From the NCBI GenBank assembly GCA_964016885.1, contig OZ024742.1, positions 260,772,001-260,836,000 on the forward strand: a stretch of 64,000 bases of DNA. The letters run 5' to 3'. The position numbers and the translations under genes are program-made. The notes beneath the pieces were generated by a model. The model was not told where the DNA came from and did no database searches. It worked only from the letters and a program-made list of their open reading frames with translations. This document shows, one piece after another, positions 20,299-41,170 of this stretch; the first letter of the stretch is position 1; each line of letters starts with the position of its first letter. Source of the DNA: Eledone cirrhosa (taxonomy: Eukaryota).

Positions 20299-20421
20299 GA
20301 GTAAATCAGACAAAGTTGGAATTCCTCTTATTAATATAATCTTCTATACACAATCATACACACCCGTGTATATTTACCTATCTATATCTCTATATATATA
20401 TTCCTATTGTGTATATGCCAA

Positions 20422-21445
20422 CATGTCTGGAAAGCAACAAATGAAACCAACAGAATCAGAAAGAATTCTAAAGGAGATATCATCGAAATTATCAACACTT
20501 ATCACGATGATGGACACACAATCCTCTATTTTAAAGGAAATAGAAAAACAATCTACAGACGGAAAACTTATAACTGAACATATAAACTCTGAAATTAAGA
20601 ATTTAGCTGAAATTATACCAACAGTTATCAAAGATACAAGAGAAATCCTACCACAACCCCCTTGGATGTCAGAAATAAACGAAAGAAATTTGGAAAACAA
20701 AACACATCGAATAAGAAAAGAAATGTGGAAGACAGGGAAAAAATTCCTTAACATAAGAAAACAAAATTTCTGGAAAGCATACAGATGCGAAAAATATGTC
20801 GAAACACATTCGAAATGGCTCTCTCTAACGGCACCCATACTCCCTCGTAAATACCTAATTACAGAAATTGCAGGAGAACCAGAAGAAGAAACAAAACTCC
20901 GATGGGAACTTACATTGACAAAATTCAGGACCGACATCTCCATTTCTGAATGTAAACAATCCCGCTACAAAGCCAAATATGAAGCTATTGATGACCAAAT
21001 TGAAGTTGAAATTTCAAAGCTAACGACTGGTATTATAGCTGAAAAACTACGAGAACTATGGATCGGAGATATCTCAAAAGAAGAAAACAAATCAAGAAAG
21101 GTATGGCAGCAGAAACAATTATTTCTCGATGAATATGCTGCAAATTACGGTAAAGACTCTGGAACCCTGAGAAAAAGCATTAAAAGTGGACAATCTCATC
21201 AACACAACATACGCCAGAACACGTGCCAACACAAACACTCACCTTACCTTGAATCAAAGAAGAACTACGGTAATAACTCTTCGCTTTTTCTACAAAAACA
21301 CCTTATCGCACACAACATGAACAAAAAGCACAAACACGATAGGTATTCCTTTGACCAGACCATGAGAAGTAGTAAAACCAGGAGATCATTCTCAAGATCT
21401 CAACAGAGACTACCAACAAGGAATGTGGAAAAAAACGTAGAATAA
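20422..21445 (+). pseudogene. PLE N-terminal region (coiled-coil/basic), function unknown
   Basis: Long open frame upstream of the RT inside the terminally redundant unit; no motif recognised. Confidence 0.5.
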
Positions 21446-21769
21446 CCAGATCACTCTCAAGATCTCAACAGAGATTGCCCACAAGAAACTGGACGAAAAA
21501 ACGATCTAAACCTGAAAGCAAACCTAGGTCATTTTCCCAGATTGTTAAAAATAATGCTAACAGGAAGAAAAATAATATACAGAATACCAAAAATAGGACA
21601 AAATACATAACGAAACCAAATATAATATCACGACCAAAAGTTCATCAAGCGAACACCAACAGGAATATAAATCCTGAACAGAGAAAAATTCATTTTTTAA
21701 CGTCAGGACAACAAAAACCGGAAAAAGAAAAACTCCAGGAGGAAACATACCCAAAACAGCTGTACACGT

Positions 21770-24003
21770 AGATCCTAAAATAATTAATTTATCTAAAAGA
21801 GATCTTGACAATGATGAAATGCAAATTCTGTCAAAAGGACTGAAATTCACACCGACTCCAACAGTCAACCACCAAGAACTGAAGGAGGATACCCAAGAAT
21901 TCTGTCGAAAATTACGTCTTGTAGAATTCTTCGCTGATAAAAATAATGAGAGTGATGAATCACTAGTAAAGAATAAATCAAATTTCACTCCGCCAAAAAT
22001 CTCGACCAATACATTGACATCCTGTCTAAATTTCCTCTTAGACATAATACTAATGTTAGGCCAAACATTAACAAATCAGAAATGTCTGCACTTAAACGTA
22101 TACAAAATGATAAAACAATAATAATTAAACAAGCAGATAAAGGGGGTGCAGTTGTTATAATGGATACTGAATACTACAAGGATTTGGTTGAGGAACAACT
22201 GAAAGACACAACATTCTATCATGAAATACCGTCAAATATAGACCACAACATCATGAAGAAGATCAACAACCTGGCTTCAAAATACCACAACTCATTTACT
22301 GATAAGGAAAGAGACTACATCACCAATTTTGAGCCGAAACCCAGCAACCTGTATGGCCTACCGAAAGTTCACAAGTCAAAAGAAATACAACTGGCAGTAA
22401 GAGAACAAAACAGTGAGTACATTAAATTATTACACCCAAAAGACTTAAAACTTAGACCTATTATAGCTGGTCCAACATGCCCCACTCACCGTCTAAGCAA
22501 TTTTGTTGACATTATTTTGAAACCACTATGTATTCACATACCCAGTTTCATCCGGGATGATATCGACTTCCTGTCCCATCTTCCCAAAACCACGGAAACG
22601 AATTCACTTCTACTCAGTTTTGATGTGGTAAGCCTTTACACCAACATTACACATGATCTAGGAATAAAGGCGGTTAAATACTGGGTGGAAAAACATAGAG
22701 AAGTGATTCCCATTAGATTCACAGCGCCATTTATATTAGACGCAGTTAAACTTATTCTGGAAAACAACACTTTCTTCTTCAATGGAAAGAATTACATCCA
22801 AATTAGAGGCACAGCGATGGGAACGAAGTTTGCTCCCGTTTACGCGAACTCTGTAATGGGATACTTAGAACAACAACTCTACCAAGAAATAGAGGAAAAA
22901 TATAGTACTGACTTTAGAAAGTACATTGAAAAATCTTGGAAGAGATACCTTGACGACTGTTTCATCATCTGGACAGAATCTTTAGATACTCTGGATGAGT
23001 TCAATATCCTCCTGAATAACCTACACCCATCTCTCCAATTCACAAAAGAGATGAGTAGGACCAAATTACCATTCCTAGATATAATGATAATCAAAAACGA
23101 CACCACCATTACCACGGATATATATTATAAACTCACAGACACCCATCAATATCTGAATTTTAAGTCGTGCCATCCACCTCATACAAAACGCAACATCCCA
23201 TACTGCCTAGCCAGAAGAATTTGTACCATTGTAGAAGATACGAATACCAGGTACAAACGCCTAACAGAACTAAGAGAATTTTTGCTCAAACAAAAATACC
23301 CATCTCTACTTATAGAAAATGGATAGAAAATGGCATACAGCGGGCTATAAAAATACCTATACAACAACTTAGAACAACCCAAAGAAGAAGAAACCAAGAA
23401 CTGGTCATACCATTTATAATGACACACAACCCATGTCACCAGAATATCTTCAACACTGCCAAAGCAAACCTACCGATCATTGCTCAAAGTAATGAATAAA
23501 AAGGCTTAATCACAGATCGATCTTTGACTCTTAGTAAAAGACAGCCAAAAAATTTGAAGCAATTGCTAACAAAAGCAAAGTTTGACCTTAACAACAAAGA
23601 CCAATCATTCACTGTATCTAAATGCAATGATAATCGATGCGGCACATGTCAATCCATACACGCCGGTCAATATATGAAAACAAAAACTGGAAAAATATTC
23701 ACAAATGCAAATATGAACTGCAAAAGCAGAAATCTAATTTACTGCATTAAATGCCCGAATTGTGAAGAACTATATGTCGGTCAAACTGGAAATGCACTAT
23801 CGGAACGTGCACGGGTACACCGTCAACAAATCAGAGACCCAAATGTCCGTCAGATACCCCTAAGCGGCCACCTGGCAACATGTGGTCAGGGAATATTTAT
23901 AATATTCCCATTCTACAAATTACACAGCCCAAATGAAATCAAGAGAAAAATCAAAGAAAAGAATTTTATTGATAAATTCAAACCCAAGCTAAATGAACAA
24001 TAA
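21770..24003 (+). pseudogene. PLE reverse transcriptase plus GIY-YIG endonuclease, disrupted
   Basis: LSKGLKFTP, ADKGGAVV, YGLPKVHK, LRPII, FDVVSLYTNI, GTAMG, RYLDD, LPFLD; linker CNDNRCGTC; LIY..YVGQT. Frameshifts include an 11-bp duplication ATAGAAAATGG at ~23312-23333, and there is a stop at 23499. Confidence 0.92.
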
Positions 24004-39195: not shown

Positions 39196-39395
39196 NNNNN
39201 NNNNNNNNNNNNNNNNNNNNNNNNNNNNNNNNNNNNNNNNNNNNNNNNNNNNNNNNNNNNNNNNNNNNNNNNNNNNNNNNNNNNNNNNNNNNNNNNNNNN
39301 NNNNNNNNNNNNNNNNNNNNNNNNNNNNNNNNNNNNNNNNNNNNNNNNNNNNNNNNNNNNNNNNNNNNNNNNNNNNNNNNNNNNNNNNNNNNNNN
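39196..39395. other. Assembly gap (200 N)
   Basis: Run of N. Confidence 1.
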
Positions 39396-40736
39396 TCTCG
39401 ATAAAAGCAAGGGAAGTAATCTACGCGTTTCATTCTCGTTAGAAATCATCAGGACTACATATCCAGTGCTTTTATCGAGAATGACACAGCTAGAGACTTA
39501 TAGAATACTTAGCTGTGTACAGGAACTGGTTTGAAAGAGCGGTTGCCGGTCCGGCAGAAATTAGAAATTGGAATAAATGCTCTGAAATAGCGATATATAT
39601 GTGAATATAGACATAGAATATTCGAAAATATTCTGTATGTTTATAATAAACATTTTGAAGACCTAATCGCTATAGAATAGAATACGTCACTTATTACAAT
39701 TAGATTCTCGATAAAAGCAAGGGAAGTAATCTACGCGTTTCATTCTCGTTAGAAATCATCAGGACTACATATCCAGTGCTTTTATCGAGAATGACACAGC
39801 TAGAGACTTATAGAATACTTAGCTGTGTACAGGAACTGGTTTGAAAGAGCGGTTGCCGGTCCGGCAGAAATTAGAAATTGGAATAAATGCTCTGAAATAG
39901 CGATATATATGTGAATATAGACATAGAATATTCGAAAATATCTGTATGTTTATAATAAACATTTGAAGACCTAATCGCTATAGAATAGAATACGTCACGT
40001 ATTACAATTAGATTCTCGATAAAAGCAAGGGAAGTAATCTACGCGTTTCATTCTCGTTAGAAATCATCAGGACTACATATCCAGTGCTTTTATCGAGAAT
40101 GACACAGCTAGAGACTTATAGAATACTTAGCTGTGTACAGGAACTGGTTTGAAAGAGCGGTTGCCGGTCCGGCAGAATTAGAAATTGGAATAAATGCTCT
40201 GAAATAGCGATATATATGTGAATATAGACATAGAATATTCGAAAATATTCTGTATGTTTATAATAAACATTTTGAAGACCTAATCGCTATAGAATAGAAT
40301 ACGTCACGTATTACAATTAGATTCTCGATAAAAGCAGGGAAGTAATCTACGCGTTTCATTCTCGTTAGAAATCATCAGGACTACATATCCAGTGCTTTTA
40401 TCGAGAATGACACAGCTAGAGACTTATAGAATACTTAGCTGTGTACAGGAACTGGTTTGAAAGAGCGGTTGCCGGTCCGGCAGAAATTAGAAATTGGAAT
40501 AATGCTCTGAAATAGCGATATATATGTGAATATAGACATAGAATATTCGAAAATATTCTGTATGTTTATAATAAACATTTTGAAGACCTAATCGCTATAG
40601 AATAGAATACGTCACGTATTACAATTAGATTCTCGATAAAAGCAAGGGAAGTAATCTACGCGTTTCATTCTCGTTAGAAATCATCAGGACTACATATCCA
40701 GTGCTTTTATCGAGAATGACACAGCTAGAGACTTAT
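39396..40736 (-). mobile_element. Retrozyme-like ~310-bp tandem array (~4.3 units), hammerhead on the minus strand
   Basis: Units start at ~39396, 39706, 40014, 40323 and 40631. Hammerheads at 39416-39458, 39726-39768, 40034-40076, 40342-40384 and 40651-40693. Confidence 0.9.
39416..39458 (-). ncRNA. Type I hammerhead ribozyme (first of five identical minus-strand copies)
   Basis: GTAGTC-CTGATGA-T TTCT AACG AGAA T-GAAA-CGCG-TA-GATTAC, with GUA cleavage triplet. Stem I is extended by a 15-bp helix TTCTCGATAAAAGCA/TGCTTTTATCGAGAA past an internal loop. Confidence 0.92.
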
Positions 40737-41170
40737 CTTCCCTTGCTTTTATCGAGAATCTAATTGTAATACGTGACGTATTCTATTCTATAGCGATTAG
40801 GTCTTCAAAATGTTTATTATAAACATACAGAATATTTTCGAATATTCTATGTCTATATTCACATATATATCGCTATTTCAGAGCATTTATTCCAATTTCT
40901 AATTTCTGCCGGACGGCAACCGCTCTTTCAACCAGTTCCTGTACACAGCTAAGTATTCTATAAGTCTCTAGCTGTGTCATTCTCGATAAAAGCACTGGAT
41001 ATGTAGTCCTGATGATTTTCTAACGAGAATGATACGCGTAGATTACTTCCCTTGCTTTTATCGAGAATCTAATTGTAATACGTGACGTATTCTATTCTAT
41101 AGCGATTAGGTCTTCAAAATGTTTATTATAAACATACAGAATATTTTCGAATATTCTATGTCTATATTCA
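40737..41170 (+). mobile_element. Inverted arm of the retrozyme-like array (~1.4 units)
   Basis: Reverse complement of the left units. The hammerhead at 41003-41046 has GAAA changed to GATA. Ends in (TA)n. Confidence 0.9.

Follow-up and report, generated by a model that had tools for sequence, protein, structure and literature searches.

One each of two fixed RNA 3' ends at head-to-head insertions of Penelope-like elements and a hammerhead retrozyme in Eledone cirrhosa

Introduction

How does a 310-nt non-coding tandem come to lie as an inverted array in (TA)n, beside Penelope-like elements (PLEs) arranged in the same manner? The question was raised by a stretch of the Eledone cirrhosa genome (OZ024742.1, positions 260,772,001–260,836,000, 64,000 nt of the forward strand, in the 3.0-Gb assembly GCA_964016885.1; hereafter the window) that holds a PLE which is Neptune-like by its motifs (PLE-1), an older and a young insertion of one that is Hydra-like (PLE-2), and a tandem that is, judged by its sequence, a type I hammerhead retrozyme with predicted self-cleavage and a predicted circular RNA. 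The initial annotation had placed hammerheads in all four insertions and read three of them as 5'-to-5' inverted; both observations held (inverted pairs at 25945–28541, 28557–33548 and 39396–41170, PLE-1 not being inverted), and the junctions that it gave (TTAATAT/, ATCGTA/, TTTCC/ATAT and TATTCA/TATATA, with the slash at the junction) are present as written.

PLEs have already been proposed as mobilisers of retrozymes, together with a model leading from circular RNA to multimer, and the text covered of the papers concerned argues from common ribozymes, co-distribution and the phylogeny of pseudo-long terminal repeats (pLTRs) (PMC7229834; bioRxiv 10.64898/2026.07.22.740005). Because about one quarter of the window consists of (TA)n-like arrays and its RTE long interspersed nuclear elements (LINEs) also sit in (TA)n, the window alone is unable to show targeting, and its retrozyme has only one visible outer end, the left 3' end falling inside a 200-N gap. 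Here, using loci sampled across the genome, we show that both outer ends of the inverted insertions are RNA 3' ends at two fixed sites, one of each per insertion, in three families, and we consider it very probable that the retrozyme has spread by PLE-type mobilisation.

Results

Head-to-head insertions end at two fixed sites

Retrozyme loci were collected in two samples. The first came from 32 scored candidates in a DNA search, which yielded 28 young loci and distant relatives; with one locus at a contig start dropped (n = 27), 22 were 5'-to-5' inverted, 4 were single-armed and 1 was a secondarily amplified cluster. The second was ordered by position (the first 20 of 24 clusters of a 22-nt retrozyme pattern on C1), and all 10 of its young loci were inverted. 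Overall, 32 of 37 young retrozyme loci were head-to-head, compared to 0 of 30 RTE copies. The corresponding figures were 29/37 for PLE-2 (36 of the loci in two best-40 lists, two of them chosen as visibly paired, and the window) and 18/31 for PLE-1 (30 loci from the best 40 of 1,512 candidates, with one apparent duplicate skipped, and the window); these fractions lean upward, since best-hit lists over-sample two-armed loci, and all samples were best-hit or position-limited.

The 3' ends of each family fell at two A/U-rich stop points, designated A and B, which lay at unit positions 102–113 and 137–146 in the retrozyme (25–40 nt apart), 34–40 and 91–103 in PLE-1 (about 55–65 nt) and ~3726 and ~3812 in PLE-2 (about 86 nt). 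One arm ended at A and the other at B in 29 of 30 retrozyme pairs (20/21 and 9/9), 27 of 28 PLE-2 pairs and all 11 PLE-1 pairs (binomial P of 3e-8, 1e-7 and 5e-4, respectively, against a free 50:50 choice), counts that omit pairs with a non-canonical end (1 retrozyme, 1 PLE-2, 5 PLE-1) or an unseen end (1 retrozyme, 2 PLE-1). A 75–80% diverged relative of the retrozyme gave 7 A/B-type pairs, no like-ended pair, 2 pairs with a non-canonical end and 2 single arms.

Both sites occupy loops of one stem-loop in PLE-1 (z −3.3), and in PLE-2 a 29-nt hairpin motif is repeated just 3' of each (0/2000 shuffles); the ACTC...GAGTG hairpin that follows PLE-2 site A is also present after several other hammerheads of a similar kind. 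The A/B region of the retrozyme (unit about 28–170) is the part conserved in its older relatives, and its folding energy is ordinary (z 0.04). Microhomology to (TA)n amounted to 9 nt at site A and 1–2 nt at site B of the retrozyme, 5 and about 11 nt in PLE-1, and in PLE-2 to 2 exact nt lying in imperfect TA runs. Of the earlier suggestion that both target ends are primed by microhomology, the part concerning both ends agrees with the head-to-head counts and the A/B pairing, and the part concerning microhomology falls short at retrozyme site B.

The same ends bear on whether local amplification of a PLE terminal fragment might have produced the arrays as a satellite, or long-read assembly the inversions as artefacts. 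Local amplification has been proposed (bioRxiv 10.64898/2026.07.22.740005, in the text covered), some loci adjoin assembly gaps, and the longest arms contain patches of recurrent variants (T252C in 7 units of locus L099; G243T and A270C in 3 units each of L098), which count against an origin in insertion alone and show some later local duplication. Such origins are nevertheless highly improbable for the arrays as a whole, given ends fixed at A and B, variable centres with microhomology or filler, arms that differ by point changes, dispersed loci, the lack of such inversions in RTE copies of the same assembly, and the same TA junctions in read-derived contigs (TA loose ends at retrozyme unit 113, 128 and 146).

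Arms, centres and 5' ends

Fold-back self-priming of one strand, in a single event of target-primed reverse transcription, was proposed for rotifer PLEs (PMC3846280, in the part covered). It would explain identical arms, some junctions are palindromic or run via the unit's internal helix (window, L091, L100 and L130), and it may apply to multimeric retrozyme arms, each of which contains the whole unit. However, fold-back demands that one arm contain the other, and in 12 of 27 PLE-2 pairs and 5 of 11 PLE-1 pairs (17/38, one marginal case left out) each arm held sequence that the other lacked; moreover, either arm can be the longer. Simple fold-back is excluded at these 17 PLE loci because neither arm contains the other, and as the general origin of the pairs it is very unlikely. 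Arms meet at variable points with 0–5 nt of overlap or short filler: of 21 retrozyme centres found by script, 14 had a 1–5 nt overlap, 3 had a longer one via the unit's own helix and 4 had filler, and the young PLE-2 arms of the window overlap by 5 nt.

Both retrozyme arms carried the same haplotype at 22 of 22 loci, among about 12 haplotypes that are each fixed in nearly every unit; the chance of a match, estimated by hand, is ~0.16 per locus if arms are drawn independently, and the activity of haplotypes may be separated in time. PLE-2 arms had 10 rare variants in common at 7 of 20 loci. The matched haplotypes fit one monomer circle read twice.

None of 48 retrozyme 5' ends lay within 2 nt of the predicted ribozyme cut, and ribozyme cleavage was rejected as their source. 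Together with arms that reach about 33 units, this is expected if the ribozyme cut goes unused or is sealed. The hot spot of 5' ends at unit 145–147 (8/48) may mark the place where transcripts start, where a hairpin halts synthesis or where the primer at site B obstructs it. In PLE-1, 3 of 47 5' ends did coincide with the predicted cut (P = 3e-5; two loci, L119 and L140; unit 4114–4116), a hint of cleavage in vivo, and the other PLE-1 arms read through.

These observations also bear on a variant of two-ended PLE priming in which the templates are two separate RNAs, or linear read-through multimers from a source array, with no single circle. One active source array per cell would likewise match the arms, the hot spot could be the start of a linear RNA, and the 3/47 PLE-1 ends at the cut mean that linear templates exist; the rare like-ended pairs L100 (B/B) and L198 (A/A), unexplained by one RNA with two sites, fit two RNAs. 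All this weighs against a single circle. We still regard separate or linear templates as unlikely, since two independent RNAs would lead to exclusive A/B pairing only with an asymmetric protein pair, long linear multimers would have to escape up to about 30 ribozyme sites, the many haplotypes fixed across all units would demand repeated one-unit bottlenecks, and no clear Pol III boxes were seen by eye.

The (TA)n target and the RTE control

An end was scored as lying in (TA)n when at least 11 of 12 positions matched, with the positions of 34 evenly spaced 10-kb stretches as background. By this measure, (TA)n followed 65/69 3' ends in the retrozyme and 40/41 true ends in PLE-1, compared to 4.9% of background positions. 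At L106, the sole yield among 23 loci tried, empty paralogous sites contained (TA)n before insertion, which shows that the target is pre-existing (TA)n. Flanks were TA-rich far above background; target-site duplications are unreadable inside (TA)n.

The initial annotation listed a (TA)n target among the traits common to the PLEs and the retrozyme. As a PLE-specific signature it is not supported: because 18 of the first 30 RTE copies on C1 also end in (TA)n (difference P = 7e-5), (TA)n is a shared niche and no proof of PLE action. RTE, young and abundant (10,397 exact genome matches to a 39-nt 3' pattern), might on these grounds be taken as the mobiliser of the retrozyme. This is most improbable, as a (GAT)n tail closes 30/30 RTE copies and 0/69 retrozyme ends, and no RTE copy (0/30) has a same-family inverted arm at its 5' end within the fetched stretch, which cut ~3 long 5' untranslated regions (UTRs) before their end; one copy adjoins a 75%-identical other subfamily there. 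Retrozyme and RTE have no common 3' sequence and no homology, and the retrozyme thus lacks the RTE-like 3' end and (GAT)n tail of an RTE-dependent short interspersed nuclear element (SINE). It has instead the inverted 5'-truncated arm, the tail at one end and the lack of a poly(A) or repeat tail expected of PLE-mobilised sequence. The proposal that a PLE mobilises the retrozyme in trans accordingly survives as to the type of machinery (32/37 head-to-head, the A/B rule and 0/69 RTE tails).

The young RTE-like LINEs (window 15899–18682, 50060–53480, 35796–37981 and others) encode a PHD-type finger after the reverse transcriptase (RT) and have (GAT)n tails; two copies are 99.9% identical, and RTE favours (TA)n. 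In the flanks of L013 and L095, retrozyme arrays lie tail-to-tail with Hydra-like 3' ends across a common (TA)n, a nested use of the microsatellite.

Identity of the retrozyme and its relatives

A type I descriptor called eight hammerheads in the window, compared to a mean of 0 in 200 Markov shuffles of the element DNA. Their cores lie at 24384 in PLE-1, at 28663 (minus) and 33360 (plus) in PLE-2, and at five positions within 39452–40687 (minus) in the retrozyme; the background stretches gave 12 matches, several of which were these PLE motifs again. In the older PLE-2 insertion the core at 28349 comes with a damaged stem II and the descriptor failed, and the plus-arm retrozyme copy reads GATA in place of GAAA, so that 5 of 6 retrozyme units matched. 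Rfam gave the retrozyme a sub-threshold match only (HH9, 15.8 bits, E 1.8), and among the matches listed for the whole window there was nothing but (TA)n-driven miRNA noise; minimum-free-energy folding recovers hammerheads poorly (z near 0) and was not used as evidence. The 310-nt unit is tandem, AT-rich and non-coding, with no open reading frame (ORF) of 100 aa inside, and agrees with non-LTR retrozymes in having a non-coding tandem unit of 150–450 nt, GC below 50% and no LTR, primer-binding site or polypurine tract. Recurrent stem I variants A250G, G251A, A286G, A304G and the double T232C+A304G preserve pairing, and T252C loses one pair. The 22-nt pattern has 20,990 genome matches, i.e. about 21,000 motif-bearing units.

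Several related or comparable tandems were encountered. An older relative (L292, L294, L296, L299 and L310; at least 1,584 candidates) has a hammerhead-like core UUGACAA, with U3-A8 replacing C3-G8, a full stem III and a cut triplet that is mostly GUC. In a third relative with a 320-nt unit, L330, the core appears to be UUGAUAA, and AAAA replaces GAAA; both may be natural covariant cores. A second, unrelated hammerhead tandem family (L190, L112, L107, the L106 flank and L212) has a period of ~466 nt, a core CUGACGA/CUGAUGA and internal (TA)n; in L190 it too runs minus then plus, and at L106 the 310-nt retrozyme is inserted in its (TA)n.

Retrozyme matches also occurred in sequencing runs labelled as many other organisms. 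Horizontal spread was rejected, as the matches fit trace DNA carry-over: two runs (X4 and X6) held one flank-less retrozyme contig at depth 26–34 and the young E. cirrhosa RTE at depth 11–17, in pieces identical to the window copy (RTE was compared in 3 of the other-organism runs). High-copy E. cirrhosa repeats at low depth in X4, X6 and X9 are most simply explained in the same way.

Identity of the two PLEs

By their motifs, PLE-1 is Neptune-like and PLE-2 Hydra-like. The window copy of PLE-1 is one 4.2-kb unit plus 35–40 nt with ORF1, RT, a CX4CX2C linker and GIY-YIG, frameshifted by two small duplications; intact copies have a 775-codon frame for RT and endonuclease (EN), with ORF1 overlapping ORF2 in the −1 frame. 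RVT_1 and GIY-YIG matches, a DKG motif and the linker CNDNRCGTC were found, in line with the Neptune clade (C-terminal GIY-YIG, CX2-5CxxC linker plus CCHH, DKG, optional ORF1, hammerhead). The PLE-2 copy in L146 is open over 745 codons, which encode RWR, DKT, CNCRDRSKC (CxCX5C), CDLC (CxxC) and CKH (CxH) and no CCHH; Pfam gave no match for PLE-2. It agrees with the Hydra clade as described in the covered text of PMC8557442 (single ORF, RWK-like motif and DKT, linker, no CCHH, CxxC and CxH around E/N, hammerhead, (TA)n), and its 3.8-kb unit, which includes a 1.5-kb 3' UTR, is longer than the typical 3 kb. Many more Hydra-like families occur in background loci (L207–L240 and others) at 35–67% protein identity to PLE-2, and any of them could be a helper.

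Other features of the window

The layout around the four insertions is given in Table 1. The 5'-truncated RTE-like LINE served as an internal control, and the Helitron-like insert is a later insertion; both are outside the PLE/retrozyme system. The latter is an 887-nt element with a 37-nt internal tandem (window 26094–26981, L227 and L206), of which three copies lie head-to-tail in L227. Elsewhere in the window are an exon with a C2H2 zinc-finger array (6785–8024; about 12 fingers with an 84-nt period) and, at 49816–50074, a probable RTE-dependent SINE, in which RTE 3' sequence comes after a tRNA-like head and which is fused in front of a 5'-truncated RTE.

Table 1. Features between positions 18684 and 49815 of the window.
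Feature	Position	Strand
(TA)n-like array, left flank of PLE-1	18684..20298	.
PLE-1, Neptune-like, not inverted, 3' end at site A	20299..24538	+
PLE-1 hammerhead (minimal, type I) with predicted cleavage after 24412	24379..24417	+
(TA)n-like array	24535..25944	.
Left arm of the older Hydra-like insertion, from the EN-upstream region, with its 3' end at an internal, non-canonical site	25945..27218	-
Helitron-like non-autonomous insert (TC...CTAG, 3' hairpin, between A and T), interrupting the older left arm	26094..26981	+
Right arm of the older Hydra-like insertion, from the 3' UTR, with its 3' end at site B (approximate left boundary)	27220..28541	+
Young PLE-2 (Hydra-like), left arm, 3' end at site A (ATCGTA), hammerhead core 28663	28557..31057	-
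Young PLE-2, right arm, hammerhead core 33360, 3' end at site B (TTTCCAT)	31053..33548	+
Thumb/EN ORF of young PLE-2 right arm	31048-32013	
(TA)n-like array	33547..35795	.
5'-truncated RTE-like LINE, (GAT)n tail, (TA)n on both sides	35796..37981	-
(TA)n-like array, followed by the 200-N assembly gap 39196-39395	37983..39195	.
Left arm of the retrozyme: five type I hammerheads in 4.3 units of 310 nt; the gap hides the 3' end	39396..40736	-
Retrozyme right arm, 1.4 units, 3' end at site A (TATTCA/TATATA)	40737..41170	+
(TA)n-like array, right flank of retrozyme	41170..49815	.

Discussion

The arrangement of these insertions suggests a mechanism in which a PLE protein, predicted to act as a pair, would cut both strands of (TA)n, as may be inferred from in vitro work on the Poseidon protein PAc (PMC11167929, in the part covered). 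Both DNA ends would then prime reverse transcription inward on one RNA; a left arm on the minus strand and a right arm on the plus strand, with RNA 3' ends outward, is the result expected from such priming. PLE RTs are not known to have an RNase H. Two RT active sites might grip the RNA at A and B, with the trailing RT displacing the leading cDNA, and on a ligated 310-nt retrozyme circle both could go round several times to give homogeneous multimers. The two cDNA 3' ends would anneal and prime second strands, and single-arm copies would arise when one cDNA is joined directly to the target.

We consider two-ended priming probable. The whole chain, in which both cut ends serve a PLE as primers on one RNA, probably circular in the case of the retrozyme, with an A/B footprint common to three families, seems on balance the better reading of the data. 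A stronger form remains tentative, and we lean slightly away from it: PLE integration might be obligatorily two-sited, with a protein pair that takes hold of a single RNA at its two fixed sites and starts cDNA from either side of a double-strand cut, a reaction that circular ribozyme RNAs would hijack, two RTs chasing round the 310-nt circle to yield a palindromic multimer of up to 10 kb in one event.

Besides the points raised above in favour of separate templates and the upward lean of the inverted fractions, several results weigh against these proposals. The pairs with a non-canonical end depart from the A/B rule, and RTE occupies (TA)n as well. The retrozyme has no sequence homology to PLE-1 or PLE-2, the two compared among the much more numerous PLE families of the genome; and 20 older retrozyme relatives had no collinear PLE ORF attached. 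In the covered text on Poseidon PAc (PMC11167929), both target strands are cut and extended, two internal RT start sites are used, targets are AT-rich and a dimer is predicted, as in the mechanism suggested here; unlike here, there is no homology at the priming sites and no difference between strands in the start site.

PLE hammerheads, a (TA)n bias, inverted copies, a one-sided tail and PLEs as proposed mobilisers of retrozymes are already known. In the covered text, animal non-LTR retrozymes have, as here, a low-GC non-coding tandem unit of ~300 nt with a type I hammerhead, and head-to-head arrays, (TA)n junctions and two fixed 3' ends are not described there (PMC7229834; bioRxiv 10.64898/2026.07.22.740005); unlike those retrozymes, the present one showed no pLTR homology to the PLEs compared. 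EN+ PLEs of the Hydra/Neptune clades are described in the parts covered with pLTR hammerheads, a (TA)n bias, partial tandems, an adjoining inverted 5'-truncated copy and a tail often at one end only, the tail being 30–40 nt compared to 55–86 nt in the PLEs here (PMC8557442, PMC3846280). New relative to these are the counted one-of-each rule, the non-nested arms, which speak against self-priming, and the 1.5-kb 3' UTR of PLE-2. The covered text of PMC11167929 draws no link to inverted insertions or trans-mobilised RNAs, and in the literature reached, with subscription journals largely uncovered, we found no account of retrozyme arrays lying head-to-head, of a one-of-each rule, or of PLE inversions as products of two-ended priming.

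A comparison is offered by insertions outside the PLEs. In L1 twin priming, two DNA ends prime on one RNA, and the 5' inversion that results has central microhomology, a second site that varies in position and arms free of overlap. In the present families, both sites are fixed and close, and arms overlap by up to kilobases. To what was known, the present work adds evidence at the level of single insertions, an A/B rule replicated in three families, a control in the form of RTE, and arguments against fold-back.

These results make testable the origin of PLE tandem and inverted insertions with a one-sided tail, called undefined in the covered text of PMC8557442, as well as the enzyme that spreads animal retrozymes and the use of the circle, both left open in that of PMC7229834, PMC7761336 and bioRxiv 10.64898/2026.07.22.740005. 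The A/B rule is a signature of insertion that is independent of sequence homology; it names a cis region (retrozyme unit about 28–170) and points to the Hydra (L146) and Neptune (L112) proteins with intact frames in the same genome. If the two-site reading is true, one reaction would explain the PLE tail, inverted pLTR copies and retrozyme arrays, and would offer a junction test for PLE-mobilised RNAs in any genome. Some 21,000 units carry the motif, and a large genome is thus shaped by this process.

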